37,068 nucleotides of DNA. It comes from Promethearchaeota archaeon. Its GTDB lineage: Archaea; Asgardarchaeota; Lokiarchaeia; Sigyniarchaeales; SOKP01. A model generated the notes under the pieces. That model did not search any database. It saw nothing but the letters and a program-made list of their open reading frames with translations, and was not told where the DNA came from. Below are positions 9,844 through 35,533 of the stretch, one piece after another. The translations under genes and the position numbers were made by a program. The stretch is from assembly GCA_004524535.1 (NCBI GenBank), contig SDNY01000027.1, forward strand, positions 1 through 37,068, written 5' to 3'. Each line of letters starts with the position of its first letter. Position 1 is the stretch's first letter.

Positions 9844-9857
9844 AAAGGTAAATAAAA

Positions 9858-13088: not shown

Positions 13089-13172
13089 TGCGGGAAGGGA
13101 GATTTGAACTCCCGAACTCCTACGAGACTGGATTCTGAGTCCAGCGCCTTTACCAAACTTGGCAATTCCCGC
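13089..13172 (-). tRNA. tRNA-Leu (anticodon CAG), intronless, CCA not encoded
   Basis: GCGGGAA/TTCCCGC acceptor stem with discriminator A, D-arm GCCAAGTTTGGTAAAGGC, anticodon arm CTGGA-CTCAGAA-TCCAG, long variable arm CTCGTAGGAG, T-arm GGGAG-TTCAAAT-CTCCC. Confidence 0.96.
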
Positions 13173-13684: not shown

Positions 13685-13986
13685 TCAAATTGAAAGAGTT
13701 TAAGCAACAGGTTATTAAAAAGTATGGAGTAAAAAAGATTATTTTATTCGGGAGCTATTCCAAAGATAGCGCAAATGAACAAAGTGATGTAGACTTAATT
13801 ATTGTAGGCGATTTTGAAGGTAAAGGAAATCTACACAGGGCACCAATTTTTTATAAAGAATGGCATTTAGTTCAAAATATTGATTTGCCAGTGGATATTA
13901 TTTGTTATACATCAGAGGAATTTGATAAACTTAAAAATCAAATAACTATTGTAAAAGAAGCTATAGAAGAAGGAATGGAAATTTAA
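13663..13986 (+). CDS. Minimal nucleotidyltransferase (MNT)
   Basis: IILFGSYSKD....SDVDLIIV, VDIICYTSEEF. Confidence 0.9.
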   Translation: MDKDELIIKLKEFKQQVIKKYGVKKIILFGSYSKDSANEQSDVDLIIVGDFEGKGNLHRAPIFYKEWHLVQNIDLPVDIICYTSEEFDKLKNQITIVKEAIEEGMEI

Positions 13987-17123: not shown

Positions 17124-17570
17124 TTACTTCTTATTTTGATTTGATAATTGATCTTTAAATTTGGAAAAAATCTGTTTTTTGAAAAGATTGAAATCACTCA
17201 GATTTTCTTGGAGAATCTCATAAATTATTTCATTATTGATTTCCATATATAAATGACCTCTTAGATTACGAAATTTTGTCATTTTAATGAGTTTTTCTTT
17301 TAATTCATCATCAATTATATCTATTTTTGCTAAATCAATAAAGATCTCACTGTATGTTTCAGGCTTTCCATTTTTATTATTTGAGAGAATATGGTTCCCA
17401 ATATCAATACATATATTTATACATGTTTCTAAAGCCCGTTGAGCACTTAAATAAAAGAGATAATTGGAAAGAAAATCATCTTTAGATTTTTTCTTTAATT
17501 CTTCTAAGATTTCAATTAATTCATCTATTTTTTTGAATCTATTCAAAATGATATTAGGATCAATAATCAT
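17124..17570 (-). CDS. HepT-like HEPN ribonuclease toxin (DUF86)
   Basis: RALETCINICIDI, KPETYSEIF, FRNLRGHLY (Rx4HxY). Confidence 0.9.
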   Translation of the reverse strand: MIIDPNIILNRFKKIDELIEILEELKKKSKDDFLSNYLFYLSAQRALETCINICIDIGNHILSNNKNGKPETYSEIFIDLAKIDIIDDELKEKLIKMTKFRNLRGHLYMEINNEIIYEILQENLSDFNLFKKQIFSKFKDQLSNQNKK

Positions 17571-18003
17571 CCTCTAATACCTCTTTTATTGAAATTTCAT
17601 CGTACATATCAAGCATCGGTTTAATTTCTTGATACATATATAATACTTTTAACTCAAATTCATGAGTAATTGTTCTATTCTTTTGAAATATAATTCTACC
17701 ATTCTTTATGACATGAAATAAAAATCGAGGTGTGGTTTTGTTAATTATCCTTAAATCAACATTAATCTTGTAGTTAAAATGACTTTCAATCTTTAGACTT
17801 AAATCAGCAAAATATAAGTGAGGTGGTTTAAAATCTTCTTTTAAAATAATACCAATATCAATATCGCTATATTCTGTTTGAGTCCCTTTAGCATAGGAAC
17901 CATATAAATATGCTATTTGAATTTCTTCATGGTTTTTAAATAAAGTTTCAATAACACGTTCTAATTCTTTTATTTGTACCATTTGGTATTTAATTCTCTT
18001 CAT
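17560..18003 (-). CDS. MntA-like nucleotidyltransferase antitoxin
   Basis: AYLYGSYAKG....SDIDIGI, VDLRII. Overlaps the HepT-like gene. Confidence 0.9.
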   Translation of the reverse strand: MKRIKYQMVQIKELERVIETLFKNHEEIQIAYLYGSYAKGTQTEYSDIDIGIILKEDFKPPHLYFADLSLKIESHFNYKINVDLRIINKTTPRFLFHVIKNGRIIFQKNRTITHEFELKVLYMYQEIKPMLDMYDEISIKEVLEDDY

Positions 18004-20232: not shown

Positions 20233-21132
20233 TTATTTTATAATATATGTTAGTCTCTCACCTATTTGCTCTTCCAATCCAAGTTCTCTTCTTATTGCAT
20301 TTCTCACTAAATAACCTCCTACATGGAGTATTGAGTCTTTTAGCATACTGTCAGCCTGCATGCTAGCATTACAAGGATAAGCGTGATGTGCTTTACTAAT
20401 TTTTTCATTAAGAGATAAATCACCATTTTCGATGTATTTTGCTCTTAACTGTTGTAATATGTAATATGTAGAACCACATGGAGCACTTTGAAGAACACAT
20501 GCGTCTACAATTGATTTTCCATCCTTACTTAATAAAAATGATACTATGGGTACTCCAATTTGAAAATGTTCTATAAAGTCATGAATATAATCATGCTTAT
20601 TAGTGAGGTGGAATCCAATTTTATTATATTCGTTATAATCTTTACTCAATGAACAAAATGGTTTTGGAAATGCCGCTTGAATACCATATTTTTCAAAATC
20701 TTCAAGCACTTGTACTTGCAATCCCGCAGGAACCCATTTAGGATCTTCTATAGGAACTATTACCGCTTTTACTCCTTTGTCTTTTAAATAAAAGGGCAGT
20801 TCTGCTAATAAATCTGGATGAATTCCTACAACTATTAAAAAATCGACAGGTGGCAAATTTTTAGGTAAATATTTTTCTGAATCTTCTACAAAATCAGGAA
20901 GACCTTCACCAATTTTCTCATAAAAATAAATTGAGCTTGCATAACCTTTTAAATTTTCGCGACATTTATCGCATTTAATATTCATTTCCAAATCTTCACA
21001 TGCTTTACAAAAATCCTCAGAATTTATCAAATTTCCTACAAATTTCGCGGTTAGCATCTCGGTATCTGGATCTACTCCATACAAAAACCCTAAAGTGTAT
21101 TTTTTATTATTTTTACTCATCACGGGATACAT
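20233..21132 (-). CDS. DUF166 family protein
   Basis: LPPVDFLIVVGIHPDL, FPKPFCSL, SAPCGST, HHAYPCNASM. Confidence 0.82.
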   Translation of the reverse strand: MYPVMSKNNKKYTLGFLYGVDPDTEMLTAKFVGNLINSEDFCKACEDLEMNIKCDKCRENLKGYASSIYFYEKIGEGLPDFVEDSEKYLPKNLPPVDFLIVVGIHPDLLAELPFYLKDKGVKAVIVPIEDPKWVPAGLQVQVLEDFEKYGIQAAFPKPFCSLSKDYNEYNKIGFHLTNKHDYIHDFIEHFQIGVPIVSFLLSKDGKSIVDACVLQSAPCGSTYYILQQLRAKYIENGDLSLNEKISKAHHAYPCNASMQADSMLKDSILHVGGYLVRNAIRRELGLEEQIGERLTYIIK

Positions 21133-21305
21133 AAATTATATGTTTTTATTTGTTTTTTTAATAATTAATAAACCATATAATTTTTTAGTAGAACATGTTC
21201 AAAGAAAGATATTCTATTTCAAAAATTAGATGCTTATAAAAGAAGAAATTGTTTTTATATATGACAATTAAAAATTTAAATTAAAATTCACGAGATACGA
21301 TTGTT

Positions 21306-22997
21306 TTGAGTGAAAAGAGTGTTGGCTTTAATTCTGACGAAAAGCTTGAAGAAATAAGTAGATTTTATAGACATAAACTCCCTTTTACTTTTAAATCTTT
21401 TATGAAAGATATAGAGATTACAAAAAAGGAGTTCTTTCTGCTGTTTTTAATTTTTAATTCGTTGGTTTTTTTGGGTCTTTATCAATTTGGAATAATAATT
21501 GGAATGCCTATTGAACATGAGAACCCTCATTTAAGAGAATTGAATTTATTTAAAGCAGTATCTATATTCAGTGGTTTTATAATAGGATTTTTACTTTCGA
21601 TATATTTTATTGATAAAATAAAGAAACCTATAAGTTTCATCAAAAGTGTTATAGTGACCTCATTAATATTAATTTTTATACAAATTCCTTTAATTTTACT
21701 TAAAATGGAAATGCTCTTGAATATCTTTTACTTTACGAATATTCTAATTCTAATTATTGCTATTATGACAACTGGTAAAATATTTCTTATTAAAACTAGT
21801 ATCTTGGAAAGAGGTAGGATAATGTCTTATTTATTATTCTTTACAATTCTATGTATCGCTATTGTTTTGGGTTCAGCACTTATCAATATCTTGATTATTA
21901 TTCCAATTGTTTTCGTAGTTCTTACAATTATTTTACTTAAGATAAATAAAGATAAATATAATATTAAGTTCCAAACATCTATAATTGAAGGGGAAAAGAA
22001 AAGTTTACTGAAAAGTTTTCAGCTCGATTTAATAAAATATTATCTCTTTTTTTTCTGTTTTAGTTTTACGGGTGGTCTTGCGTTCCCACTTCAAGATTCA
22101 ATTCAATTCGGCGTTAATGCGCTGGCAGGGAATACAGTCTTGATCTTTTCACTTGTTATAATTTATGCAATTATTATTGTGATTTTAATTGGTCTTTTAT
22201 TTGATTATGCCGGTAGAATTTTTCCACTAAATTATATTATTTTAGCAATAGCATTGGCCACGTACATACACATCTTTAGAGATAGGTATTATGATTTCCC
22301 TCTTGCGATTGTATTTAGCGCTTATATCGCTGCTCTTATGTGCGTTCCTCTCCTAATCGGAGACACAATTACGCGGGAAAATTTTGGAAGTTCATTATCC
22401 ATTTCTTATTTTATCATTATCATAGGGATGATTATTGGTTTAAGTTTTAATATGTTTATAACAGAATCATTAGAATCTAGTTCTTTTAAAGAAATTTTTC
22501 TAATGGGGACAATATTTATGTTTTGTATCATCTGTTTGTTGTTTTTAGTATATATGCGTGAGACTTTACCTCGGAAAGAGCAGGCGTGGAAAAATTTTTT
22601 ACATCATCTCTACATTATTCACGATTCTGGAATTTTACTTTACGAATATGCTTTTATAAAAGAAAAACAGACGGAGGGGAGTAGCGTTGATTCTGATTTG
22701 AGGGCAGGAGGTATAATTGGCGTAAGATCTATTTTGAAAGAAATAGTACAAGGAGAAGAAGAAGTTAAAACGATTGATAGTGGGGATAGGGTTCTTATGA
22801 TTAACCATTCTAATCAAGTTATTTTTGCTCTTATAATAAAAGAGGAATTAATTGTATTAAGAAAAAAAATGGAGGCTTTAATCGAAGATTTTAATAAGGA
22901 ATTTGGAGAACTAATTAATGAGGTTAGTTCAATTGGCGCCGCTATACACAAATTTAAACCAACTGAACATATTGTTTTGAAATATTTTGGAAATTAA
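21306..22997 (+). CDS. MFS-like 12-TM protein fused to a C-terminal longin-like domain
   Basis: About 12 hydrophobic segments with MFS-like loops (YFIDKIKK, ERGR, GLLFDYAGR, MRETLP), then HLYIIHDSGILLYEYAF...GGIIGVRSILKEI...FALIIKEEL..LRKKME. Confidence 0.72.
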   Translation: MSEKSVGFNSDEKLEEISRFYRHKLPFTFKSFMKDIEITKKEFFLLFLIFNSLVFLGLYQFGIIIGMPIEHENPHLRELNLFKAVSIFSGFIIGFLLSIYFIDKIKKPISFIKSVIVTSLILIFIQIPLILLKMEMLLNIFYFTNILILIIAIMTTGKIFLIKTSILERGRIMSYLLFFTILCIAIVLGSALINILIIIPIVFVVLTIILLKINKDKYNIKFQTSIIEGEKKSLLKSFQLDLIKYYLFFFCFSFTGGLAFPLQDSIQFGVNALAGNTVLIFSLVIIYAIIIVILIGLLFDYAGRIFPLNYIILAIALATYIHIFRDRYYDFPLAIVFSAYIAALMCVPLLIGDTITRENFGSSLSISYFIIIIGMIIGLSFNMFITESLESSSFKEIFLMGTIFMFCIICLLFLVYMRETLPRKEQAWKNFLHHLYIIHDSGILLYEYAFIKEKQTEGSSVDSDLRAGGIIGVRSILKEIVQGEEEVKTIDSGDRVLMINHSNQVIFALIIKEELIVLRKKMEALIEDFNKEFGELINEVSSIGAAIHKFKPTEHIVLKYFGN

Positions 22998-23044
22998 ATA
23001 CTGTTGTATCGAAATTAAAATTATTCTTTTTGTTATTTTTAAAA

Positions 23045-23887
23045 ATGGATGTCCATAAGATAAAAAATAAAGTATTAAATGATTTAAGACAAGAAATCCC
23101 AGATTTAATTGAAGGAAAAGATACTTTTTCTCTTACTCGTCTTAGCAGCAAAAAAAATATAGTATATGAATTGATTTTTGATAAGAAACCAGAAAAATTA
23201 CCCAAAGAAGTAATCCTCAAACTTTTCAGAACTAACTATGCTGAAAAAGAATATAAAGCCTTAATCAAACTAGAAAAACAGGAGCTACCAATCCCTAAAG
23301 TATTATATTTTAAAAAACCTTATTTAATCCTTAAAAAACTCGAGGGTGTTAATCTTTGCGATTTTATAAATGATAACTTATTAAATATTTCCACTATAGA
23401 TGAATTAAATTTGGAGATCCGTGATAAAATTATAGTTAGCGTAAAGAAATTAGCTGAATGGATAGCTAATTTGCATAGGCAAAACATAATTACTAAGAAA
23501 AATACACTTGAGATTATTGTGTTTAACAAAGGAGATACTCGACTGAGAGATTTTATATATAATTCAACAAAAAATGTTATTTACGGCATCGATTTTGAAG
23601 AATCATATGAAGGGAATTTCTTAGACGATTTAGCTTGGATTTGTTGTTCTTTATTAGATACGAATCCTGGAATTTTTGAAATACCTGAACCAAAACATAA
23701 AATAGAGCTAATTAACTACTTTTTAAAGGAGTATTTCCGAATTAATAAGAAATTTTTGTTCTCATTCAATTATTTCGCAGAAAAATTAATTGATTATTTA
23801 AACATCGTAATTGAAAGGAGAGCTATAGAATTAAGCCCTGTTAGAAAAAATGTTATTCTGAGAAATATCTCTAAAAAATATACCTAA
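23045..23887 (+). CDS. Protein-kinase-like (APH/RIO-type) phosphotransferase
   Basis: SKKNIVY, VILKLF, EKEY, IPKVL, NKGDTRLRDF, YGIDFEES, DDLA. ATG 23045 preferred over TTG 23030. Confidence 0.75.
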   Translation: MDVHKIKNKVLNDLRQEIPDLIEGKDTFSLTRLSSKKNIVYELIFDKKPEKLPKEVILKLFRTNYAEKEYKALIKLEKQELPIPKVLYFKKPYLILKKLEGVNLCDFINDNLLNISTIDELNLEIRDKIIVSVKKLAEWIANLHRQNIITKKNTLEIIVFNKGDTRLRDFIYNSTKNVIYGIDFEESYEGNFLDDLAWICCSLLDTNPGIFEIPEPKHKIELINYFLKEYFRINKKFLFSFNYFAEKLIDYLNIVIERRAIELSPVRKNVILRNISKKYT

Positions 23888-24004: not shown

Positions 24005-25252
24005 ATGAGCGATGTAGGCACAAAAGAAGTTGCGATTGGTATATTACTTATTGGACTCGTTGCGATGGCAGGATGGGTTGGATTTCTTTATGTGAATCCC
24101 GTTACTAAGACAAAAACAGAAGAAGAAGAGGAAACTATATATATTACAACTACAACAAAAGTTATCGAGGAAACAGGTTTACCAGATGATTGGGGTTTAG
24201 CAGAATTGGATGCTTCCTTTTCTGTATTTAATGAAACGGGTGGAGAGATAACAGTAAAAATGTCTGATATTTTAAATGGTATTTCTCTCTATTATAATCA
24301 AGAAGCGGACCCATTGGGTCGTAAAACACTAGAACATAAATACGAGTATATGGAATTACGAACGGTCGACGATCCATTATCAGGTCGAACTTTTACTGGT
24401 GTAAATATTTTAGATGTATTGGAATTTGCTGGTACATTTTTTGCTTGGAATATTTCTTGCAAAACAAATAATGAGGATTTATATCCCAATACTTATTTTA
24501 ATGTTTCAACTGGAGATATAGTTAATTTGGATAGTAAAAATGGTGGATACATTCCTACAATTATTGCTATTGCTGCTGATGGATTATGGTTACCTGACCT
24601 TGGTTATGGAAATTTTTCAATTATCCAAGGACAATCATCACAATCTATTTATGATCTTAAAGAAATAAGGACTCTTTCAGAATGGCAAGTAGACATAATT
24701 GTTAATGGAGATCCAAGATATCAAGTTAATAGGACAAATATTAGTGATCCTCATTATCCAGATGGATGGCATTGGGAATATCATAAGAATTTTACAGGGC
24801 CTGATAATGCATACATGGGTGGGAGAATGACATATAATCGTACATTTTGGGGAGTAAATATGTCATATATAATAAACCAAACTAATGCTAAAGATCTTAA
24901 TTATACTATGAGTGCAGTATCTGTAGATGGTTGGGCATCTGATACATATAACAATACTGATATTAACTCTGGTTTAGTTTATCCAGTAAACTATGGATAT
25001 GTTAATTATACAGATAATCCTCCTACAGGGGTTCCTTTACCAAAAACAGATCTGTTAATAACATTGGTTTATATGGAACAAAGATTCTATGAATACGGTT
25101 TATTCCCTTCTGATCCAATATGGGATAAGGGATATTACGATGGATATTATGGTGGACCGTTTCACCTCGTAATCCCTGGAATGACAAAAAATAAACATGC
25201 GGGATGTGTAAAAAGTATCATAATAACTACATATGCTGGTCCAATTCCTTAA
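24005..25252 (+). CDS. Membrane-anchored surface protein with two degenerate sulfite-oxidase-like molybdopterin-binding domains
   Basis: N-terminal TM anchor, Thr/Glu linker, FTGVNILDVLE and FWGVNMSYII...SVDGW...GGPFHLVIPG...VKSIII. Many NxS/T sequons. Confidence 0.65.
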   Translation: MSDVGTKEVAIGILLIGLVAMAGWVGFLYVNPVTKTKTEEEEETIYITTTTKVIEETGLPDDWGLAELDASFSVFNETGGEITVKMSDILNGISLYYNQEADPLGRKTLEHKYEYMELRTVDDPLSGRTFTGVNILDVLEFAGTFFAWNISCKTNNEDLYPNTYFNVSTGDIVNLDSKNGGYIPTIIAIAADGLWLPDLGYGNFSIIQGQSSQSIYDLKEIRTLSEWQVDIIVNGDPRYQVNRTNISDPHYPDGWHWEYHKNFTGPDNAYMGGRMTYNRTFWGVNMSYIINQTNAKDLNYTMSAVSVDGWASDTYNNTDINSGLVYPVNYGYVNYTDNPPTGVPLPKTDLLITLVYMEQRFYEYGLFPSDPIWDKGYYDGYYGGPFHLVIPGMTKNKHAGCVKSIIITTYAGPIP

Positions 25253-25316
25253 AATATTTTTTTTTTTTTTAAATCAACAATCTAATATTTATTTATAGAA
25301 AACAATAATAAAAATA

Positions 25317-26264
25317 ATGAAAAAACTTAGAGTTAACCTTATTTTTTCATTAATCCTGCTTTTTTTGATAGTTAGTTGGAAAATTCCATTTTCATTTTCA
25401 TATCCTGGAGATGGGGATTGTACCGATTATCATGGAATTACTAACATTAATGCTAATTATATTGAAAATTCTCAAATTGTTTTGGATGGTGTTTCAAATG
25501 AATCTTTTTGGAATGAAATTAAAATTAAAAATGGATTTATCACAATTCCTACAGCTAATATTCTTGGCAATCCTGGAGACGAAATAATTGAAGCTAAATT
25601 AATTTTCGTTTTAAATAATCAATATATTTATATTTATTGTGAGTGGAATGATACTACTTCCAAGCCAAGTGGTATAAACATTTTTGATGGTATTTATTTC
25701 TGTTGGAATATAAACACTCCTAATTTTACTTCATATTACCCCAATGATATGAATACAGAGCATATGGGAGGAGGATTGATAGACACTTGGGGAACTGAAT
25801 TTTATTTTGGAGATTCTCATGAAAATCATTCAAGTTTTGTAGGTAATGACGGATGTATTCAAGAAGATGGATGGCATTTAGGAGAAATTAATGATATTGA
25901 AATTGGTTTTTCATATGTTGTTGATCATTCCTATTCTATTGAGATTAAAAGAAAATTAATTACAAACCATGAATATGATGTACAATTTTATAAAGGAAAA
26001 TCATATCTCTTTAATATTGGATTATTTAATGATGGATACGGGATCGATCATACGATTTCTTGGGTTTATAGGTTAAATATATTAAGTGATGATTATGCTA
26101 TTAATAATGATGATGACGATAAATCGAGTAAGAATGATACGCAACTCGATATCGGATCAATTATAATAATAGGGACCATATCAATAATTTTAATTATAGC
26201 GATAATTACATATTACAAATCTAAAATTACTAAAAATAAAACTAATATAAAAAATGCAGACTAG
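25317..26264 (+). CDS. Secreted, C-terminally anchored DOMON-like (ethylbenzene dehydrogenase gamma-type) domain protein
   Basis: Signal peptide, IVLDG...E.FW, YIYIYCEWNDTT, HMGGG.IDTW, YSIEIKRKL.T...DVQF, DHTIS, C-terminal TM followed by a basic tail. Confidence 0.7.
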   Translation: MKKLRVNLIFSLILLFLIVSWKIPFSFSYPGDGDCTDYHGITNINANYIENSQIVLDGVSNESFWNEIKIKNGFITIPTANILGNPGDEIIEAKLIFVLNNQYIYIYCEWNDTTSKPSGINIFDGIYFCWNINTPNFTSYYPNDMNTEHMGGGLIDTWGTEFYFGDSHENHSSFVGNDGCIQEDGWHLGEINDIEIGFSYVVDHSYSIEIKRKLITNHEYDVQFYKGKSYLFNIGLFNDGYGIDHTISWVYRLNILSDDYAINNDDDDKSSKNDTQLDIGSIIIIGTISIILIIAIITYYKSKITKNKTNIKNAD

Positions 26265-26856
26265 AAATTTTAAGATTTTAGTCGCGGCAATATGCATTGG
26301 TTTAACAGCAGTTTGGCTTACTGCATATAATATTGTAAGATTAGGCATAGATCCTATTGGATATATTCAACAGAATACTTCAGGATCTTTTTCAGATGAA
26401 GAGTCAGAAGATTTAAAAACAATATTAACTATTAAAGGAAAAGTTAAAGAGGATTTACGTCTTTCATTGTCTGATCTCAAATCAGATAAATATAAACAGG
26501 TAACAGATGATTTTGACTTTAAAAATTCATATGGCACAGAATGGACTGCGGAATATACGGGAACGACTCTTTGGAGTATATTAGAAGCTGAAGGAATATT
26601 AGAATCTGATGATTTAACATTTATATTTATCGGACAAGATGGATATGAATCTCCAGTAGCTCTATCAATTGAAGATATTGCCAAGAAACATGAAAATAAA
26701 GTAATATTAGCTTATGAGCTAGAAGGTCAACCCTTAAGTGATGATAATGGTCCTGTAAGATCTATAATAGACAGAGAAGTTATACAATACCTTGAACCAA
26801 ATCATTATAATTCTCAATTTGCCGTAAAAAGTTTGAAATATGTTGAGATCAAATAG
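26254..26856 (+). CDS. Membrane-anchored sulfite-oxidase-like molybdopterin-binding domain protein
   Basis: LTIKGKV...LSLSDL, YTGTTLWSILE, GQDGY, VILAYELEGQPL...GPVRSII, VKSLKYVEI. Confidence 0.8.
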   Translation: MQTRNFKILVAAICIGLTAVWLTAYNIVRLGIDPIGYIQQNTSGSFSDEESEDLKTILTIKGKVKEDLRLSLSDLKSDKYKQVTDDFDFKNSYGTEWTAEYTGTTLWSILEAEGILESDDLTFIFIGQDGYESPVALSIEDIAKKHENKVILAYELEGQPLSDDNGPVRSIIDREVIQYLEPNHYNSQFAVKSLKYVEIK

Positions 26857-26871
26857 GAGTGATATATTAAA

Positions 26872-27510
26872 ATGAATGATAATAAACAAAAAACTGTCCA
26901 AAAAGAAGAGAATTCGAATCAATTAGAAGAATTTAAAGAAACGGGTTATAGCCAAGATAGTTCTAAAAAATTAGCAACCATTGATTTATTATATAGTACA
27001 ATCCTTGGTGTCATTGGTGGTTTTATATCTAGCTTGATTCCCTTTAGTCTATTAATTAAAGTGTGGTATCCATTGACAGGTGGTACTCAACTTATAAGTG
27101 GACACCATGTTATATGGGCGTCTATAGTCTATGGTTTAACTCGGAAAAAAAGAAATATCCTGATTACAATGTTCACAAAAGGTATTATAGAGTTTATGTT
27201 AGGAGATGTGTGGGGGTTATTAATCTTGTTTGTTAATGTTATGGAAGGTTCATGCTTGGCGGTTGGATTTTTTTGGATGGAGAAAATAGGAGAAGGGGAG
27301 ACCAAATTAGGTTGGGGAATTGCTGGTGGATTTGGTAACTTTTTTCAAGCACCATTTTTTTGGATTTTAAATCAAAGATGGCATTTGCATTGGACTTTAT
27401 GGGTCCTTGCATTTATGTTTGCTTTTATTTCAGGAATTTTAATCACAGGATTATTAGGAAAGTTAGTAAAGGAATATATAATCAAAGCTGGAGTACCTAC
27501 AACATTTTAA
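26872..27510 (+). CDS. ECF transporter substrate-binding (S) component
   Basis: About 210 aa, 5-6 TM, Gly-rich, YkoE-like pattern (GIIEFMLG, ISGILITGLLG...IIKAGV). Directly upstream of ECF A and T genes. Confidence 0.8.
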   Translation: MNDNKQKTVQKEENSNQLEEFKETGYSQDSSKKLATIDLLYSTILGVIGGFISSLIPFSLLIKVWYPLTGGTQLISGHHVIWASIVYGLTRKKRNILITMFTKGIIEFMLGDVWGLLILFVNVMEGSCLAVGFFWMEKIGEGETKLGWGIAGGFGNFFQAPFFWILNQRWHLHWTLWVLAFMFAFISGILITGLLGKLVKEYIIKAGVPTTF

Positions 27511-27517
27511 ATGGTGA

Positions 27518-29344
27518 ATTACGTTTCTCAATTCAATTAACTCTCCAGCAATAGTTTTCAAGAATTTTTCTTTTATTTATGGTAAAGATAACTCTAAGAA
27601 CCCTGCAGTTTCAAATATAAATTTAAGTTTAAATACCGGGGATGTATTAATTTTAGCTGGTCCAAGCGGTAGTGGAAAATCAACTCTTTCTTATGCTATG
27701 AATGGAATAATTCCATGGAGACTAAAAGGATTTATGAAAGGGGATGTTGAGATTTTTAGTAAAAGCATCTGGGACTATAATTTTATGGAATTAAGTAAAA
27801 TAGTAGGTCTAATTAAGCAAAATCCCCTTGAACAATTAGTGACATTTAAAGTTAGAGATGAGATTGGATTTGGATTAGAGAATCTTAAATATTCAGCAAA
27901 TGAGATCAAGAAAAAGATTGATGAAATTGCTAAATTTATGGGAATTTCCCATTTATTAGATCGTGATATTGATCAATTAAGTGGAGGCCAAAAGCAATTA
28001 ACCATTCTCTGTTCATTTTTGGTAATGAATCCTAAAATTCTCATCTTAGATGAACCAATTGCATTTTTAGATCAAAAATCTGAAAGTCTTCTCTTAGAAA
28101 GATTGCAACGATTGGTTAAAAAATTAGATGATAAGTTAACTATTGTCATAATTGAACATAGATTATCCAGAATAATAAATATAGCAAATAAGATTGTTGT
28201 CTTAGATGATAAAGGAAAAATAAAATTCATGGGCAATATCTCAGAAATAATACATAACAAATATGATCAACTTAGAGCTTCTAACGTGAGAGTGCCTTGG
28301 ATAATTGATACTTTTTATAAATTTAAACAAGCTCTTAATTATCATAATCAAAAATTCAAGATTCCAGTTAATTTTCAGCAATTAATTGATTTAGTGGATA
28401 AATTAAATAATTTTGAACTTGAAACACTTCAAAAAATTCTCATTAATAGTGAGATAAAACCAAATTCAATGGAAAAATTCCAGAAATATAAAGATAAAAT
28501 ACATTTTGACGAGATATATCTTGAGAAATTAAAAGATACTAGATTTCAATTAATTAATGCACTCAATCCAAATATAAATGAAAAAAATCAAGAAGAAAAT
28601 TTAATTTTAGAAACTAAAAATTTATGTTTCACTTATCCTAATTCTAATATAAATGCTATTCGAGATTTATCAATTAAAATTGACCAAGGAGATTTTCTAG
28701 GACTTATAGGACCAAATGGCTCTGGAAAAACAACGTTATTATATCTCTTGGCAAATCTTTACGATCCCGCAGAAGGTATTATTTTTTATAAAGATAGAAA
28801 TTTAAGAGATCTAGACTCTTATGAATATGCCAAGAAAATTGGTTTTATTTTTCAGAATCCTGAAAATATGATTTTTAAGTCAACTTTAAAAGAAGAAATT
28901 TTATATGGTCCAAAAAATTTTGGAATAGAAAAAAAAATTACAGAAGATTATCTTTTAAAATTAATTAACCTAATAGGTAATGAAGATCCCGATAAAAATC
29001 CTTATAATTTAAGCTGGGGGCAAAAAAGGAGATTAAATTTAAGTTCTATTTTTATTTATGATCCTGAGATTATATTACTAGATGAACCATTTATTGGACA
29101 AGATCAAAGAACTATAGATTCTCTAATTGAGACTCTTTTTATTGAAAATAAGAGAGGGAAAACGATAATTATCTCTTCACACGATTACCATCTCCTCCTT
29201 AAATATACAAATAGAATTATTGAACTTAATCATGATGGAACTCTTAGAGAATATGATATGAAATTAGATTATTTTATGAAACATAACAATTTAGGACCAA
29301 TCATCCTTCTCAACAAAATTAAAGAAAAATTAGGGGCAAATTAA
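27518..29344 (+). CDS. ECF transporter duplicated ATPase (A-A' fusion)
   Basis: First Walker A GPSGSGKST lies upstream of the ORF-track ATG in the same frame (open from 27518). QNP, LSGGQKQ, LDEP; second domain GPNGSGKTT, FQNPE, LSWGQKRR, LDEP. True start uncertain. Confidence 0.9.
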   Translation: MTFLNSINSPAIVFKNFSFIYGKDNSKNPAVSNINLSLNTGDVLILAGPSGSGKSTLSYAMNGIIPWRLKGFMKGDVEIFSKSIWDYNFMELSKIVGLIKQNPLEQLVTFKVRDEIGFGLENLKYSANEIKKKIDEIAKFMGISHLLDRDIDQLSGGQKQLTILCSFLVMNPKILILDEPIAFLDQKSESLLLERLQRLVKKLDDKLTIVIIEHRLSRIINIANKIVVLDDKGKIKFMGNISEIIHNKYDQLRASNVRVPWIIDTFYKFKQALNYHNQKFKIPVNFQQLIDLVDKLNNFELETLQKILINSEIKPNSMEKFQKYKDKIHFDEIYLEKLKDTRFQLINALNPNINEKNQEENLILETKNLCFTYPNSNINAIRDLSIKIDQGDFLGLIGPNGSGKTTLLYLLANLYDPAEGIIFYKDRNLRDLDSYEYAKKIGFIFQNPENMIFKSTLKEEILYGPKNFGIEKKITEDYLLKLINLIGNEDPDKNPYNLSWGQKRRLNLSSIFIYDPEIILLDEPFIGQDQRTIDSLIETLFIENKRGKTIIISSHDYHLLLKYTNRIIELNHDGTLREYDMKLDYFMKHNNLGPIILLNKIKEKLGAN

Positions 29345-29347
29345 ATA

Positions 29348-30232
29348 GTGAAAAGAAAAAACAAAAACAAAATACTAGACAAGAAACAATATTTATTTGC
29401 ATATGTTCCCGGTAATTCAATTTTTCATAAATTAAATCCTCTCTCTAAATTATTTTTTTTAATCTTTCTTACGATAATTACTTTGGTGAGCAATAGTCTC
29501 ATTTTTATGGCATTCATTTTTCTAATTGTATTATTAATGGCTTTACTTAGTGGGATCTCCCTCATGAATTTAATTCATAAATTAAAGTTTATCGTTATGA
29601 TTTTAATAGTAAGTGTTATTTTGAATATTTTTTTTAACGCTATTCCAAATGAAGAAGAAGTAATTCTTTTTTATTTACTCGGATTAAAATTTTTACCAAT
29701 TCGAAAACTTGCTGTATATTATGCCCTTAAAGCAATGTTTATCGTGTTAATTCTTTACACTTCTACAATTATTTATACAAATACAACAGATATTAGAGAT
29801 TTTGTTTATGCTTTGATGAAGTTAAAAATACCATACAGATATTGCTTTGCATTAATGGTTGGGATTAGATATATTCCTATTATTGAAGAGGAGGCAAGAA
29901 CCATTTCATTAGCTCAAAGAGCAAGAGGATTTGGGTTAGAAAAAGTAAATTCAGTAAAAAAAGCTTACCGATTTATTTTTGAAAGATTAATTGCAACCTT
30001 AGTTGTGGTATTGAGAAAGGCTTATGTGACATCAATATCCATGGAAAATAGGTGTTTTGGGATTTACAAAGAAAGAACAAATTTGATAGAAATAAAATTT
30101 AAACTATTAGATATTGTTTTTATGATTATTGTTTCAATAATTTTCGTTGGAATTTTATTTTATTTATTTCAATTGCTCCCGTTACCACAATTCCCTTCTC
30201 TATATCGCATTTTTTTAAAGAATTTTAAATAA
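29348..30232 (+). CDS. ecfT: ECF transporter transmembrane (T) component
   Basis: SIFHKLNPLSKL, RYIPII, AQRARG and SMENRCF coupling motifs. Confidence 0.9.
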   Translation: MKRKNKNKILDKKQYLFAYVPGNSIFHKLNPLSKLFFLIFLTIITLVSNSLIFMAFIFLIVLLMALLSGISLMNLIHKLKFIVMILIVSVILNIFFNAIPNEEEVILFYLLGLKFLPIRKLAVYYALKAMFIVLILYTSTIIYTNTTDIRDFVYALMKLKIPYRYCFALMVGIRYIPIIEEEARTISLAQRARGFGLEKVNSVKKAYRFIFERLIATLVVVLRKAYVTSISMENRCFGIYKERTNLIEIKFKLLDIVFMIIVSIIFVGILFYLFQLLPLPQFPSLYRIFLKNFK

Positions 30233-30268
30233 TTTGAAAAACCGAAATAATAATATTATCATTTTATA

Positions 30269-31102
30269 CTAGTGAATATTTTTTAGAAGTTCTAAATAAT
30301 CACTATAATTTTCTCGCGTAATTGAATATTTTTTAGTAGTAGAACCCCATCTTATATTATTTCGAATATTATGTAAAAAGCCCTTTGCATTAATAATCCT
30401 AGTACCCCCAACTACATTAATTCCCCTTTTAAAGAGAGGATCGGGTAAAAATCCAGCAGTAGGCCCTATAATCGAAGTTTTTTCTGCATTTGAGCAAAAT
30501 TTTAGAATATCATCGATTGTATCGTTCAATATTGTGGTACTAGTTAATAATACTTTATTGCAGTCTTCTAAATTAGTGGGATCTAAAGTAACTACCCAGT
30601 TCTTTTCTTTTTTCACTAAATCCTCTTTTAATTCAATAATAACTAATTTATTCCCTCTTTCCTCAATCTTTTTAACAAGCGGTGGAAAAAAACCGACCAT
30701 TCCCACTATATCTTTTTCATATATGTTTAATAAGCCTAAAGAATCTGAAGTATGATCAAAGGAAAAATTAGTTTTTTTAAAAAAAAATTGACTAATTGCA
30801 TTAATAGCTCCCATACTTAAGGATTTTTTATACAAATTATTGGATGTAAAATTCTTTACTAAATCCATTGGAGAAATATCTTTATATTCTTTTGAATCGA
30901 TTTTAAGAATTTCTTTCTTGACTTCTCGAGTTAATGCTACAAAGAAAATACCGATTGAGTTATCTTCTAATATTATTGCTGCAAAATTTGATTTTTTTGC
31001 TTTCTCATCAACAGCTGGAACAATAATTTCTTTAATTAATGGAATTTGAACTCTCTTAGCAATATCATTTAAGATTACCTGATATTCGGAAGATATTGTC
31101 AT
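30269..31102 (-). CDS. DUF364 (Rossmann-like) family protein
   Basis: MGAINAISQ, VGMVGFFPP, IIEL, LLTSTTILNDTID, IIGPTA, GVNV-like VVGG. Confidence 0.85.
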   Translation of the reverse strand: MTISSEYQVILNDIAKRVQIPLIKEIIVPAVDEKAKKSNFAAIILEDNSIGIFFVALTREVKKEILKIDSKEYKDISPMDLVKNFTSNNLYKKSLSMGAINAISQFFFKKTNFSFDHTSDSLGLLNIYEKDIVGMVGFFPPLVKKIEERGNKLVIIELKEDLVKKEKNWVVTLDPTNLEDCNKVLLTSTTILNDTIDDILKFCSNAEKTSIIGPTAGFLPDPLFKRGINVVGGTRIINAKGFLHNIRNNIRWGSTTKKYSITRENYSDYLELLKNIH

Positions 31103-31147
31103 CTTTAAATTAATTAATTGTAAAATTTAAAAGAAGTTCTAATAACT

Positions 31148-33337
31148 TTATTGATAGGGTTTAATAACGTGAATAACGTCATCAAAATCGATTCCTAACT
31201 CTTTTACTAACTCAATGGTTGGGCAACCAAACGCATTCCAACCACGTTGTTGATATACCGCCTCTTGAAGTTTAAAATACTGAATTTCTCTATATTTTCG
31301 CAAAATTTTCATTTTTTCTTCAGTAGATTTACCTTCGATATCTATATCGAGCTCTTTTAATTGGTCATCATATCTTTTTTGGCGACTTTCATATTCCATT
31401 TTTGTTACGGGTCCCATTGCTCTATAAGGTATATTGGAATCATGTTCCCTTAAACCCTTACCTTGACGAATATTAAAAATCCTTTGTAAATTATAGACAC
31501 GTTCGGACATTCGGATAAGATCATCAGGATCTGCTTTGATGCCTGTTACTGCTGTATAATAATCTGCATACCATTGAACATGTTGTGGAATTTTAGCTTG
31601 TAATAGTTCCCCTGCCATCTTAATCGGCAAATCAAAATTAGATGGAGGAGGGACGTCATTCCAAGGGAGTTTACAGAGTCCACATAACCCAAACCAAGTT
31701 CTCCATAAAGGGAACCAATACAATGCTTTAGCTTTATCTTCAAATGTCGGAATTGAATGACGCACGACATCCTCAAAAATCAACCATGCTTCATCATGTT
31801 GAGGCCCTTTGTTTGTTAAAGCATATCCTCCTTGTTGAGTGAGTGATTCTTTTGTAACATATTCAGAAAATTCAAGTCCTTTATGCTCCATACCTATATC
31901 TTGAAGAAATCGTGGGTTGCCACCATATTTAGCTGCAAATATCTCTTTCATTTTTTTAATTCCTTGACCAACGACCAGACCAAAACCCTCTCCTCGTGCC
32001 ATTTGATGAATTAATTCAATTGCGGCTTCAGCATTTCCAAACTGTAATTCAAGCCCTCCCGTGATTTCTTTATTTATAATTCCCTCTTCATAACATTCCA
32101 TCACAAACGCAATTCCAGTTCCGACTCCTATGGTATCCAAACCATAAGTATCACAGTAAAAATTTGCCTCCATAACCCATTGAGGATCCCATACACCCCA
32201 ATTTGATCCACATCCCGCAATAGTTTCATATTCAGGACCATCAATTATTACTTTTTCTCCTTTAAACTCCCCCGTCATAACTTCATAGCCTTCCACCCAG
32301 TGACTACAGCTAACGCTACACCCAAAAAAGCATCCATCTGATCCCTTTCCCGTATGTTCCCCGAAAAGATCTGCCCATACTTGGCGTTTATAAGGGATTT
32401 CTTTATCTTTAATTTCACGATGTTGTCCAAATCGAAAATTTTCAGTCGGGAGTAAATCTGTAATATTCATAATATCTGGAAGGTATCCAGTTCCTACAAT
32501 TCTCATTTGGTTCATAGAAGGATCGTAGGTTATTATTTCTTTTTTGTGTTTCCTCCCGATCTCAATTAATTTTTCTGGATCAGCAGGATTATTATTTTTA
32601 ACATCATATCGAGGAGATCGACATATTAATGCTTTAATTTTTTTATTAGCAAATACACTCCCAATTCCACCCCTACCTGCTTGTTTACAAGAAGCCCATT
32701 TCCTTTTTCGTGCATACCACGAGGAATTTAGCATCCCCCATCTTGTGTGCTTTGCGGCAGGTCCTGTACTAACTACAGAAACCATCTGTTTTTCTTTTTC
32801 CGTAGGTTCTTTCGCAAAGTTTTCTGTTAACTGTTGAGTAAGAAGATGTGATAAGTCTGAAAGATTGTCTGATTCTTCAACCTTTATAATTTGAACCATG
32901 TGATCTTGCCCATTAATAAATATCAACACATCATTTTCGGCTTTTCCTTGAATTTCGAGGGTATCAAAACCAGAATATTTTAGATAGGGTCCGAAATGCC
33001 CTCCTACATTACTGTCTATCACAATTCCAGTCAGAGGGGAAATTGCAGTAACTATAGATTTACCTCCTCCAGGATAATATGTACTGGCTCCTAAAGGACC
33101 TGTTGCCCAACAGATTTCATTTTCAGGGTCGTCCCATTTAACAATTCTGTCTTTCGGTAAGCTGTTCCACATAAGCCAAAGATCAAAACCCCTACCACCG
33201 ATGAATTTTTCTTTCATTTCATCAGTTACAGGTTTAATTTTAATTTCGTTTGTTGTTAAATTAATGTATAAAGTTCGATTTGTATATCCTCGACTCATAT
33301 CTTGGTGGTCATACTTGAGTTCTGCTAATATCAACAC
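31148..33337 (-). CDS. aor: Aldehyde:ferredoxin oxidoreductase family tungstoenzyme
   Basis: FIGGRG, SPLTG...SNVGG, AGRGGIGSVFANKKIKA, CFFGCSVSC, GPEYET, DTYGLDTI, GLCKLPW, YQQRGW. Confidence 0.93.
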   Translation of the reverse strand: MLILAELKYDHQDMSRGYTNRTLYINLTTNEIKIKPVTDEMKEKFIGGRGFDLWLMWNSLPKDRIVKWDDPENEICWATGPLGASTYYPGGGKSIVTAISPLTGIVIDSNVGGHFGPYLKYSGFDTLEIQGKAENDVLIFINGQDHMVQIIKVEESDNLSDLSHLLTQQLTENFAKEPTEKEKQMVSVVSTGPAAKHTRWGMLNSSWYARKRKWASCKQAGRGGIGSVFANKKIKALICRSPRYDVKNNNPADPEKLIEIGRKHKKEIITYDPSMNQMRIVGTGYLPDIMNITDLLPTENFRFGQHREIKDKEIPYKRQVWADLFGEHTGKGSDGCFFGCSVSCSHWVEGYEVMTGEFKGEKVIIDGPEYETIAGCGSNWGVWDPQWVMEANFYCDTYGLDTIGVGTGIAFVMECYEEGIINKEITGGLELQFGNAEAAIELIHQMARGEGFGLVVGQGIKKMKEIFAAKYGGNPRFLQDIGMEHKGLEFSEYVTKESLTQQGGYALTNKGPQHDEAWLIFEDVVRHSIPTFEDKAKALYWFPLWRTWFGLCGLCKLPWNDVPPPSNFDLPIKMAGELLQAKIPQHVQWYADYYTAVTGIKADPDDLIRMSERVYNLQRIFNIRQGKGLREHDSNIPYRAMGPVTKMEYESRQKRYDDQLKELDIDIEGKSTEEKMKILRKYREIQYFKLQEAVYQQRGWNAFGCPTIELVKELGIDFDDVIHVIKPYQ

Positions 33338-33548: not shown

Positions 33549-34418
33549 ATGGATGATATAACCGAAAAAGTTCGAGAAATACAGAAAAAATTTAAGATCA
33601 TTGGACGATCAGAGGAGCTTAAAAAAATTATTCTAGCCCGCATTGTTGGCAAGAACATATTAATTGAAGGAGAAGTAGGTGTTGGCAAAACAACACTTGC
33701 ACAGGCGATTTCGAATTATTTTGATTCAGATTTTAATCGTATTGATTGTTCAGAAGATACTCTTACTCACAATTTAGTGGGACATTGGGATCCTCCATTA
33801 GTTATTTCAAATGGATATATAGAGGATTCATATGTATATGGTCCTCTTGCTTCAGCTATGTCCAATGGTGGATGCTTATTCATAAATGAAATAAATAGAA
33901 TGCCCGAAAGTACTCAAAATGCCTTATTAACTGCATTAGACGAGAGAATTCTTGATATTCCTAAATTAAAAACAATCCACGCTACTGATAATTTCTTTGT
34001 AGTTGCCACCCTAAATCCTTCGGCTCATGTGGGTGTATCTGTATTAGGAGAAGCCATAAAAGATAGATTTATTTGGATTAAGATTGATTATCAGAAGCCG
34101 GAAGAAGAGATTGAAATTATTAAACAAGAAGTTAAACTTAATGGGGATTTAGACGATAAAATTGCTAGAATTTCCCAGGAAATAGTTCAAATAACAAGAA
34201 ATAACCCCTCACTCCGTAGAGGAAGCTCTATAAGAGGATCTATTGATTTAGCAGCGCTTATATCTCAATACGATACAAATAATAGTACCAAAAACTGGAT
34301 TGAAGCAGCTATTATGGCTCTTTATAATAAAATTGAACTTGAAGACGGTGTGTCAAAATCCAAAAAGGAAATTATAACTGAGATTGTTTTATCGGTATTG
34401 AATAGTTCGGATTTTTAG
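33549..34418 (+). CDS. MoxR-like AAA+ ATPase
   Basis: IIGRSEEL, GEVGVGKTT (Walker A), LFINEINRMP (Walker B with N for D), ATLNP, AIKDRF, SSIRG. Confidence 0.92.
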   Translation: MDDITEKVREIQKKFKIIGRSEELKKIILARIVGKNILIEGEVGVGKTTLAQAISNYFDSDFNRIDCSEDTLTHNLVGHWDPPLVISNGYIEDSYVYGPLASAMSNGGCLFINEINRMPESTQNALLTALDERILDIPKLKTIHATDNFFVVATLNPSAHVGVSVLGEAIKDRFIWIKIDYQKPEEEIEIIKQEVKLNGDLDDKIARISQEIVQITRNNPSLRRGSSIRGSIDLAALISQYDTNNSTKNWIEAAIMALYNKIELEDGVSKSKKEIITEIVLSVLNSSDF

Positions 34419-34458: not shown

Positions 34459-35533
34459 GAGTAAAAGGCTTAAAGTTAGACTTACGGAAAGACCTCCTGA
34501 TAAAGAGATTTTAAGATTAGAGATAATTAGAAAAAAGAAAAATAAACCCGATTATTATCGACATTTGGCAAATTCGTTAGATTATAAACAAATAAAGGAA
34601 ATGACATACTTAGCAATCCAGTATAAAAACCTTGAAGCTATTATGGGTATGCTTAAGTCAAACGTTTACGCAGCGACGGATGCCTTAGACTGCGAAGAGG
34701 GGGTAAAATTTTTTACCGAAAAATCTAAAGAATCAAATATGGTTATGCCGGAGATATATTTTTTTATTAGACGACCAATTTCTACAAAATATAAAAATAT
34801 CTTTAGAAGGCTTGCCCGTCAAAGCATTTTAAAAACGTCCCTTAAAATCACAAGCAGAGGTATTAAAGGAAAGGTAAAAAAGACTTTCCCTTATTATGAA
34901 ATTGGAATGCCTGAATTTGATTTGGATGAGACCATACAGCATAAACCTTTGAAGATCTATGAGAAAAGTTTATCTTACAATGATATATATGGAATTAAAA
35001 GGCAACAACAAAAGAGAAATGTGGTTTTAATTCTTGATACGAGTGGTAGTATGTATGGAAAAACACTATTAAATGCCGCTCTTACAACATCTGTTCTAGC
35101 CTATAATATGGAGAAAGAAAATTATGGTATAGTGCTTTTCAATTCAACAGCTATGACATTAAAAAAAATTAAAGAGAAAAAATCAGTTATTTCTATTATC
35201 GATGAAATTCTAGATTCCGAGGCTGTAGGATTTACTAACATCCAAATTGGTTTAGAGAAAGGTTTAAAACAATTAAATCAAGTTAAAGAAAATAGAAAAC
35301 ATAAATTTGGTATTTTAATTACTGATGGAAATTATAATCGTGGAGAAAATCCTCTTGCTATCTCAAAAAAATATCCTAAATTGCATGTAATAGGGATGCC
35401 CGCAGAAAATGACGCTGATAGAGGTATTGATACTTGTCGAGAACTTGCTAAAGCTGGAAAAGGAAAATTTTTTGCCGTAACCGATTATAAAGAAATTCCG
35501 AGAGCACTCATAAATTTATTATCTCAAACTTAG
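34415..35533 (+). CDS. von Willebrand factor A domain protein (MoxR partner), possibly expressed as a frameshift fusion
   Basis: EFDLDETI, LILDTSGSM (MIDAS), GFTNI..GL, ILITDG. The frame is open from 34406, about 50 codons before the first TTG at 34565. Confidence 0.88.
   Translation, partial: LVIDDFSTENSEEIESKRLKVRLTERPPDKEILRLEIIRKKKNKPDYYRHLANSLDYKQIKEMTYLAIQYKNLEAIMGMLKSNVYAATDALDCEEGVKFFTEKSKESNMVMPEIYFFIRRPISTKYKNIFRRLARQSILKTSLKITSRGIKGKVKKTFPYYEIGMPEFDLDETIQHKPLKIYEKSLSYNDIYGIKRQQQKRNVVLILDTSGSMYGKTLLNAALTTSVLAYNMEKENYGIVLFNSTAMTLKKIKEKKSVISIIDEILDSEAVGFTNIQIGLEKGLKQLNQVKENRKHKFGILITDGNYNRGENPLAISKKYPKLHVIGMPAENDADRGIDTCRELAKAGKGKFFAVTDYKEIPRALINLLSQT

Follow-up and report, generated by a model that had tools for sequence, protein, structure and literature searches.

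What does a transporter carry when its genes stand beside that of a tungsten- or molybdenum-dependent enzyme, in a genome where the genes for making the enzyme's cofactor were not found? The question is raised by a stretch of 37,068 nucleotides from a Promethearchaeota archaeon of the class Lokiarchaeia (GenBank assembly GCA_004524535.1, contig SDNY01000027.1, positions 1 to 37,068 of the forward strand; hereafter the window). Six of its genes encode an energy-coupling factor (ECF) transporter and three extracytoplasmic, membrane-anchored proteins; they meet, on the opposite strand, genes for a DUF364 protein and an aldehyde ferredoxin oxidoreductase (AOR). AORs use a tungsto- or molybdo-bispterin, and the view generally taken of the molybdenum and tungsten cofactors (Moco and W-co) is that a cell has to make its own. 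We conclude that the six genes probably form an ECF importer of the finished Mo/W-pterin cofactor, either Moco/W-co itself or a close metal-bound derivative. Of the 138 species-representative genomes of Lokiarchaeia sampled, 49 appear, on balance, to have lost tungstate uptake together with the molybdopterin pathway, and to live on cofactor finished by other organisms and taken up by this ECF transporter through capture proteins with a Cys-less sulfite oxidase (SUOX) fold. Import of intact cofactor had been proposed earlier from the DNA alone (the sequence-only reading). It is supported here by the lack of matches to Moco biosynthesis genes other than a MobA-like one in the host genome, by class-wide complementarity between the transporter and Moco biosynthesis, by the exchange of one for the other at a single locus, and by Moco-domain and PruR folds without the catalytic Cys.

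The six genes of the cluster are as follows.

24005-25252, plus strand: p415 (415 aa), with an N-terminal membrane anchor, a predicted SUOX/PruR-fold domain and a second beta domain; no Pfam match
25317-26264, plus strand: p315 (315 aa), with a signal peptide, an EB_dh/DOMON-like domain and a C-terminal membrane anchor
26254-26856, plus strand: p200 (200 aa), with an N-terminal anchor and a Cys-less SUOX Moco-domain fold; Pfam Oxidored_molyb, E 7e-12
26872-27510, plus strand: ECF S component, a small integral-membrane protein (212 aa); PF09819 ABC_cobalt (YkoE family) at 29.8 bits (cut-off 25.2)
27518-29344, plus strand (listed as 27698-29344, 548 aa): fused ECF ATPase A-A' with two ABC_tran domains
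29348-30232, plus strand: ECF T component (294 aa); Pfam CbiQ PF02361, E 1e-23

The list of open reading frames (ORFs) and their translations bore out the arrangement described in the sequence-only reading, with six co-oriented genes at 24005-30232 that converge on a DUF364-AOR pair, the end of the T gene (30232) and the stop of the DUF364 gene (30269) being separated by 36 nt. Its account of the gene products was also confirmed. ECF S, A-A' and T components are all present, as judged by PF09819, two ABC_tran domains and CbiQ, respectively. There are two SUOX-fold proteins (p200 by Pfam and model, p415 by predicted structure), and p315 is the DOMON-like protein, assigned as EB_dh/DOMON-like from a sub-threshold Pfam match and from protein-atlas features and structure. 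Gene spacing is tight, with an 11-nt overlap of the p315 and p200 genes and 15 nt between the p200 and S genes.

The host genome, coded G000, comprises 3.66 Mb in 198 contigs and is 99.1% complete and 4.4% contaminated (below, G-numbers denote relatives' genomes, L-numbers the loci fetched from relatives, and g-numbers genera). It holds many users of the cofactor: 13 AFOR_C matches and four Molybdopterin-family proteins, namely two FwdB above the NCBIfam cut-off and two proteins resembling the alpha subunit of formate dehydrogenase (Fdh), with Fe4S4, Molybdopterin and Molydop_binding domains. The sequence-only reading had named the presence or absence of moaA, moaC and moeA as a check, and none of them was found. 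Profile searches of G000 returned 0 matches each for MoaC, MoeA_N, the MoaA C-domain (Mob_synth_C) and MoaE; these models each found their family in 11 of 14 control genomes. Searching G000 by tblastn with the MoaC, MoaD, MoaE, two MoeA, MoaB and TOBE proteins of a congener returned nothing, and MoaA returned only weak radical-SAM genes with 22-30% identity. Likewise, TupA from another genome gave nothing by tblastn, and there were 0 matches to ModA/WtpA (PF13531, SBP_bac_11) in G000. A MobA-like gene was found, encoding 228 aa, for which the best models are all MobA (NF001457, E 1e-36, below cut-off). The genome has therefore kept at least 17 user enzymes and the last tailoring enzyme without the pathway or the metal uptake. 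Salvage typically leaves such a trace, in which pathway and metal uptake are lost while MobA and the users are kept. G000 has a single MoCF_biosynth gene, which was considered as a MoaB and rejected, being CinA/NMN-deamidase-like.

The same pattern was followed across the class in a survey of the 138 genomes, all at least 80% complete, with S orthologues counted at E <= 1e-40. An AOR (AFOR_C) is present in 137 of them, and cluster-bearing genomes have from about 2 to at least 12 AFOR_C matches each. S orthologues occur in 57 genomes, and four further genomes, which have only S paralogues of about 32% identity, were left uncounted. MoaC was detected in 71 genomes, MoeA in 75, and one or the other in 77. 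Co-occurrence of the S clade with its neighbours was another check suggested by the sequence-only reading, and the outcome is clear: S is nearly complementary to Moco biosynthesis, and its gene is colinear with that of the Oxidored_molyb protein p200. S alone is found in 49 genomes, MoaC or MoeA alone in 69, both in 8 and neither in 12. Both states, S and Moco biosynthesis, occur within each of the genera g1, g5, g6, g10, g11 and g16. TupA orthologues, present in 57 genomes, follow biosynthesis and not S: they occur in 55 of the 81 genomes lacking S and in 2 of the 8 that have both, but in 0 of the 49 with S only, so the metal route was lost too in these. SBP_bac_11 (PF13531) proteins were found in 52 of the 138. 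Three genomes assembled as single contigs (G011, G014 and G017) show the full pattern, with the cluster, 6-7 AOR matches and no MoaC, MoeA or TupA.

Gene neighbourhoods were then compared over up to 20 kb around the p200 orthologue in 20 relatives, with ORFs labelled by phmmer and Pfam; together with the window this makes 21 loci. The genes p200-S-AA'-T are colinear in all 20 relatives' loci, one of which is cut by a contig end after S, leaving T colinear in 19. The p415 gene is present in 19 of the 20 and the p315 gene in 15. The gene order is not due to chance, since this colinearity is found in 20 of 20. In 10 of the 21 loci the cluster abuts moa/moe genes, a bis-MGD enzyme (MGD, molybdopterin guanine dinucleotide), an AOR, or a SUOX enzyme with MoaD/MoaB orthologues. 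The clearest comparison lies within the genus of the window, where the following gene orders were found.

G040 (no cluster, Moco biosynthesis present): TupA-TupB-TupC-MoaC-MoaA-MoaD-MoaE-[AOR]-MoeA-MoaB-MoeA-MoxR-VWA-Nre
Window (cluster only): DUF166-p563-p285-[p415-p315-p200-S-AA'-T]-DUF364-AOR-MoxR-VWA-Nre
G041 (both): the cluster, then the moa/moe operon, with MoxR-VWA-Nre further downstream

A second swap was observed in genus g10, where TupABC with moa/moe genes in G070 and the ECF cluster in G050/G055 lie between the same flanks, p285-u254-u242 on one side and MoxR-VWA on the other. In genus g6, G029 has the moa/moe form between the same flanks, but a swap is not directly shown there, the VWA marker of the cluster-bearing G032 being on another contig. 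At one chromosomal position, then, the cluster stands in for metal uptake and cofactor synthesis, which argues that it delivers the same product as TupABC and the moa/moe genes. Compared with the known routes, TupABC, WtpABC or ModABC plus moa/moe, the cluster occupies the same chromosomal slot in siblings and presumably serves the same end product, whereas its proteins are unrelated and it would replace uptake and synthesis together.

These loci might also be explained by import of the bare metal, with the ECF transporter carrying tungstate or molybdate oxyanion, the Cys-less SUOX-fold proteins binding that oxyanion, and the system replacing TupABC only. We consider this unlikely, although the gene order gives it some support. 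Four genomes (G041, G131, G132 and G133) have an operon of moaC-A-D-E, moeA, moaB and moeA beside the cluster. In G041, G132 and G133 the cluster lies directly upstream of moaC, in the place taken by TupABC in G040 and G070, and in G131 it lies just upstream of TupABC-moaC, with TupABC between the cluster and moaC. That neither TupA (by tblastn) nor ModA/WtpA (PF13531) was found in G000 also speaks for it. However, 49 of the 57 cluster genomes have no MoaC/MoeA match, and G000 in addition has none to MoaA, MoaD, MoaE or MoaB; with no pterin-pathway genes found in these 49 genomes, metal alone could not yield the AOR cofactor. Moreover, G131 has retained TupABC next to the cluster, so one cannot simply stand for the other. 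The S component is by Pfam of the organic-substrate (YkoE) type and not CbiM/NikM-like. Two further points favour the oxyanion: SUOX active sites bind oxyanions, as in the part of the record covered for PDB 6y0k, with phosphate, and the DUF364 family is linked to molybdate/tungstate transporters, as well as to pterin/flavin-like ligands, in the portions covered of two reports (PMC2954201; bioRxiv 10.1101/2024.03.05.583561).

If the finished cofactor is imported, the surface proteins should be suited to hold it. The AF2 model of p200 has a pLDDT of 84.6, and via this predicted model residues ~49-200 adopt the Moco-domain fold, with closest similarity to SorA (Z 16.2, 29% identity), chicken sulfite oxidase (SO; Z 15.8, 27% identity) and PruR (Z 15.8, 18-20% identity, root-mean-square deviation (rmsd) 2.9-3.0 over 133-136 aa). 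The fold is shared with SorA, chicken SO and YedY/MsrP, and the Oxidored_molyb match is above cut-off; unlike these enzymes, p200 lacks the Mo-ligating Cys, a twin-arginine signal and a dimerisation or haem domain, and its host lacks Moco-synthesis matches. The absence of Cys from the soluble domain, noted in the sequence-only reading, was borne out, the sole Cys of p200 being C14 within the membrane helix. In a profile alignment, the Mo-ligating Cys of a relative's genuine SUOX enzyme aligns with Asn91 of p200. Among the 36 sequences of the p200 alignment, this column holds N in 25, T in 10 and K in 1, and Cys occurs after residue 45 in only 3, at scattered positions. Other positions are well kept (Tyr131 in 35 of 36 and Arg169 in 34 of 36). 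The hairpin of p200 is full length, showing no deletion relative to the genuine Cys-bearing SUOX enzyme in the profile alignment.

The likeness to PruR (Agrobacterium, Vibrio and Klebsiella; PDB 7kos, 7kom, 7kp2 and 7rkb) deserves a closer comparison. Both are small, secreted, Cys-less and non-catalytic SUOX folds (predicted models in the present case), and the presumed equivalent of the pterin-stacking Tyr of PruR, in a DGY motif, appears conserved here. According to the parts covered of PMC11194511, the hairpin of PruR is truncated and bears Pro-Trp where the Cys would be, leaving a pocket too short for Moco; PruR binds small pterins, and signals to the DcpA cyclase from an operon with a DcpA-type GGDEF-EAL protein. 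In contrast, the present proteins have a full-length hairpin with Asn or Thr, a membrane anchor and ECF genes as neighbours.

This comparison raises the alternative that PruR-like binders supply the ECF transporter with another pterin or a precursor, such as a compound of the neopterin/monapterin type, a folate or methanopterin precursor, or metal-free molybdopterin or cyclic pyranopterin monophosphate (cPMP). ECF transporters for folate and for queuosine precursors do exist, which favours it. In addition, PruR is tied in Z score with genuine SUOX enzymes among the closest look-alikes of p200, and it binds small non-Moco pterins in the covered parts of its description (PMC11194511). We nevertheless judge this as improbable as oxyanion import. 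The complementarity and the same-locus swap are specifically with Moco biosynthesis and tungstate uptake, and cells importing cPMP or metal-free molybdopterin would also require MoaD/MoaE or MoeA, none of which has a match in G000. The p200 hairpin is of full length, and p200 is closer in sequence to genuine Moco enzymes (25-30% identity) than to PruR (18-20%).

The second SUOX-fold protein, p415, was recognised by its predicted structure (AF2 model, pLDDT 80.5). Residues ~64-228 resemble PruR 7kom (Z 13.7, rmsd 2.2 over 118 aa) and chicken SO (Z 13.5) via this model, and 7kom is also the best Foldseek match (E 2.5e-5). The second beta domain, residues ~226-408, has only a weak look-alike in 9a64_A (Z 8.1) and is left unassigned. 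Sequence comparison is less informative: BLASTP of p415 against p200 gave nothing significant, profile-profile comparison of the two families gave a probability of 5.9%, and Pfam detected Oxidored_molyb in 1 of the 19 p415 homologues examined (E 1.3e-4). The kinship of p415 with SUOX proteins is thus a structural prediction. Cys reaches at most 10 of the 19 homologues in any alignment column, so p415 has no conserved Cys.

The third surface protein, p315, gave a weak Pfam match to EB_dh (PF09459; 24 bits, below the cut-off of 33.3), and its neighbours in a protein atlas are EB_dh families (feature scores 0.92-0.94, TM 0.57-0.67). The alignment shows an invariant GDCxxYH motif together with invariant Met145 and His245; these last two are candidate haem ligands only, and p315 is possibly a haem-b or ligand-binding accessory. 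By sequence inspection, a twin-arginine motif is absent from p200, p415 and p315. All three would therefore cross the membrane unfolded, and could meet a cofactor only outside the cell. From its sequence and from established knowledge of twin-arginine translocation, p200 would not be exported pre-loaded. Considering these models, we propose p200 and p415 as putative surface proteins that capture the Mo/W-pterin cofactor.

The domains could also be those of an extracellular redox enzyme, composed of a SUOX-like and an EB_dh-like haem subunit, to which the ECF transporter exports cofactor or with which it is merely co-regulated. SUOX-fold and EB_dh-like haem-type domains are indeed parts of extracytoplasmic Mo enzymes, an ECF-type system exports FAD in Listeria, and a genuine Cys-bearing SUOX enzyme fused to DUF4079 is encoded after the T gene in genus g10. 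We regard this explanation as very unlikely, however. The 49 cluster genomes without MoaC/MoeA have no evident Moco to export, the Mo-ligating Cys is missing from p200 in 36 of 36 homologues and p415 offers no conserved Cys either, and an exchange with genes of biosynthesis and uptake points to supply of the cofactor rather than its use.

The genus g10 fusion gene was seen in four loci (L035, L037, L038 and L041), right after the T gene and with an Oxidored_molyb E of ~3e-40. In loci of this genus from genomes without MoaC/MoeA, orthologues of MoaD and MoaB follow the SUOX-DUF4079 gene and are the only moa genes kept there. Another locus, L047 (G025:C182), has two S genes, 58-61% identical to that of the window, and a split bis-MGD oxidoreductase (Molybdopterin and Molydop_binding) on the opposite strand in mid-cluster.

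The ECF module itself is conserved. S components are 66-80% identical within the family-level group f1, and their alignment contains 55 invariant columns. A-A' scores best with the NCBIfam models ECF_ATPase_2 and ECF_ATPase_1, under the equivalog cut-off in each case. Its first Walker A motif (GPSGSGKST) is encoded at ~27650-27676, upstream of the first ATG, GTG or TTG (27698), and the frame is open from 27518 with none of these codons before 27698. The same placement is found in G037 (L033) and G119 (L040), and A-A' of other relatives starts with ATG and has 604-611 aa. The coding region in the window probably begins near 27518 at a non-canonical start; the placement of the Walker A motif suggests either such a start codon or translational coupling. 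In the sister-family genomes G011, G014 and G017 (L069-L071), extra p200-like genes and one ORF of 853-874 aa matching A-A' were found, with no separate T ORF labelled; the long ORF may be an A-A'-T fusion.

An ECF system usually works without an extracytoplasmic binding protein. Here, three extracytoplasmic membrane-anchored proteins are co-encoded, and their genes are kept with the ECF genes in 15-20 of the 20 loci. Because of these proteins, unlike usual ECF systems, the module is a variant of the ECF transporter with extracytoplasmic SUOX-fold and EB_dh-like accessories. The proposed importer would be dedicated and of group-I-like type. The group I transporter YkoEDC of Bacillus subtilis (YkoE, PDB 5edl) offers the nearest known comparison: it has an S of the same PF09819 family, a fused A-A' and a CbiQ-type T, all co-encoded. 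It differs in that the present S is very distant, thiamine genes are not linked, three extracytoplasmic proteins are added and the context is that of Moco.

An ordinary YkoEDC-like importer of thiamine or hydroxymethylpyrimidine (HMP), with the surface proteins as unrelated neighbours, would account for the PF09819 assignment, for YkoE being the only PDB sequence match of S, for the ykoEDC-like set of S, fused A-A' and T, and for the name 'ABC-type thiamin/hydroxymethylpyrimidine transport system permease' given to homologues in some sources, but it is scarcely credible: the YkoE match is marginal (phmmer E 0.097, 15.7 bits), S and the surface-protein genes keep a colinear order in 20 of 20 loci, with tight spacing in the window, the neighbours are Moco-related with no thi genes among them in the loci examined, and ThiC, present in 124 of the 138 genomes including G000, occurs in 50 of 57 S-bearing and 74 of 81 other genomes, which reveals no link with HMP auxotrophy. 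The sequence-only reading had held that grouping of S with carriers of thiamine precursors would speak against it; such grouping is found formally, through PF09819, whereas the distance to YkoE and the independence of ThiC leave little of a thiamine link.

Among 301 sampled genomes of the phylum, S orthologues turned up in 49, all of them in the class, with 0 of 194 outside it. Among the best 120 of 290 S homologues in the protein database, all were at least 69% identical, and every one with a named source came from an Asgard-labelled metagenome-assembled genome (MAG). A pattern scan of one genome per species gave 47 loci, all but one in Asgard-labelled MAGs. An S relative with 57% identity lies on L115, a 7.4-kb contig labelled Candidatus Deferrimicrobium sp., and is the sole one not on an Asgard-labelled contig; this contig could be mis-binned or reflect a transfer.

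For import of the finished cofactor, the route that we infer, from substrate and direction of transport to every intracellular step, would run as follows. The anchored proteins p200 and p415, inserted by the Sec route, would capture cofactor released by other cells, possibly with the assistance of the EB_dh/DOMON-like p315. The captured cofactor would be handed to S, and the fused A-A' and T would drive uptake. Inside the cell, AORs would use the imported cofactor directly, in bis-pterin form, and the MobA-like enzyme would guanylylate part of it for FwdB and the Fdh-like enzymes. DUF364 and MoxR-VWA may help in handling or insertion.

Every genomic test that was run supported this import. Several points nevertheless weigh against it. 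The complementarity between S and MoaC/MoeA gives a Fisher p of 2e-17, a value that overstates independence because genomes of one class are kin; the occurrence of both states within genera is more telling than this p. Eight genomes have both the cluster and biosynthesis, and 12 have neither. Of these 12, however, 9 are less than 90% complete, 8 lack the VWA marker and 3 more have it 1.3-2.7 kb from a contig start; since the marker is missing or near a contig start, this suggests that most are assembly gaps rather than a third state. An SBP_bac_11-type protein of ~375-385 aa and of unknown specificity is present, away from Moco genes, in 12 of the 49 S-only genomes. In G041, G132 and G133 the cluster occupies the position that elsewhere belongs to TupABC. 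The S component belongs to the Pfam family of the thiamine/HMP carrier YkoE, and some public records name it so. The DUF364-AOR convergence to which the sequence-only reading drew attention is real in the window, but it proved specific to that locus: DUF364 adjoins the cluster in 2 of the 21 loci (the window and G130) and AOR in 1 of 21. Free Moco is chemically labile. AOR needs a bis-pterin, and without MoeA no route to it from a mono-pterin species is evident. Finally, most organisms cannot take up Moco as a nutrient, according to the covered part of a review (PMC9026282).

The nearest precedent is Caenorhabditis elegans, which acquires finished, protein-bound Moco from its diet (PMC7849362, PMC9793310, from their abstracts). 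That is an animal, and the abstracts name no transporter, whereas the present cluster is a candidate dedicated transporter in a prokaryote. The cofactors listed as exchanged by Prometheoarchaeum are B12, biotin and lipoate, as well as thiamine pyrophosphate, and not Moco, in the covered text of PMC7015854. Our literature search found no prokaryotic Moco/W-co transporter, no ECF transporter with SUOX-fold partners and no Asgard Moco auxotrophy; it did not cover Extended Data Fig. 5 and the supplements of PMC7015854, which may bear on the Moco gap. If true, import of finished cofactor would make this the first candidate dedicated Moco/W-co transporter, as far as the literature searched goes. It would extend ECF transporters by a new class of substrate and by an architecture with accessory proteins, and the Cys-less SUOX fold would gain a second non-catalytic role in addition to the signalling of PruR. 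A sizeable part of the Lokiarchaeia would depend on neighbours for the cofactor of AORs, their most abundant redox enzymes. AORs are central to amino-acid and aldehyde fermentation in Lokiarchaeia, and such dependence would bear on models of syntrophy and on cultivation. In anoxic sediments the cofactor would then be traded like a 'vitamin', and Asgard archaea would have a hidden dependence on partners.

Downstream of the cluster, the window holds the following genes, with an Nre gene after the last of them.

30269-31102, minus strand: DUF364 protein (277 aa); Pfam DUF364, E 2e-33
31148-33337, minus strand: AOR-family enzyme (729 aa); AFOR_N E 2e-46, AFOR_C E 5e-94
33549-34418, plus strand: MoxR-type AAA+ ATPase; Pfam AAA_5/AAA_3
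34565-35533, plus strand: VWA-domain partner of MoxR; Pfam VWA E 2e-13, VWA_CoxE E 6e-5

The DUF364 gene is single-copy in the host genome, and its product is a possible cytoplasmic handler of imported cofactor, a weak link. The orthologue of the window AOR (728 aa, phmmer E printed as 0) is encoded between moaE and moeA in G040, the sibling without the cluster. MoxR, with or without VWA, adjoins the cluster in 11 of the 20 relatives' loci and adjoins moa/moe operons in cluster-less genomes; by analogy, it might possibly act as a chaperone of cofactor insertion. MoxR-VWA was also considered as a cluster-specific part and rejected, a VWA orthologue being present in 115 of the 138 class genomes with or without the cluster, and the pair flanking both forms of the island.

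On the left side, positions 20233-23887 of the window encode a DUF166 protein (minus strand), a 563-aa protein without Pfam match (p563) and one of 285 aa that weakly matches RIO/Bud32-like kinases (p285). In genera g1, g6, g11 and g12, DUF166-p563-p285 is conserved to the left of the island. Between p285 and the island, a conserved pair of ORFs of ~250 and ~245 aa without Pfam match was observed in many relatives, with both island forms (for example L037:1619-3111 and L066:1669-3140); the window has no copy, and tblastn found none in G000.

The rest of the window carries genes of other kinds. No riboswitch was detected in it by Rfam at gathering thresholds, the sole match being a tRNA; a tRNA gene lies at 13089-13172 on the minus strand. 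Two pairs of HEPN and minimal nucleotidyltransferase genes, at 13325-13986 and 17124-18003 (HEPN with NTP_transf_2, and HepT-like with Polbeta), are likely toxin-antitoxin modules. Three tandem genes for RDD-family membrane proteins occupy 8621-10427, one of the products having an N-terminal zinc ribbon. Finally, at 2002-3942 on the minus strand, a 646-aa DNA methylase of Eco57I/MmeI type with a TaqI-like specificity domain is encoded, which is probably a type IIG/IIL restriction-modification enzyme.

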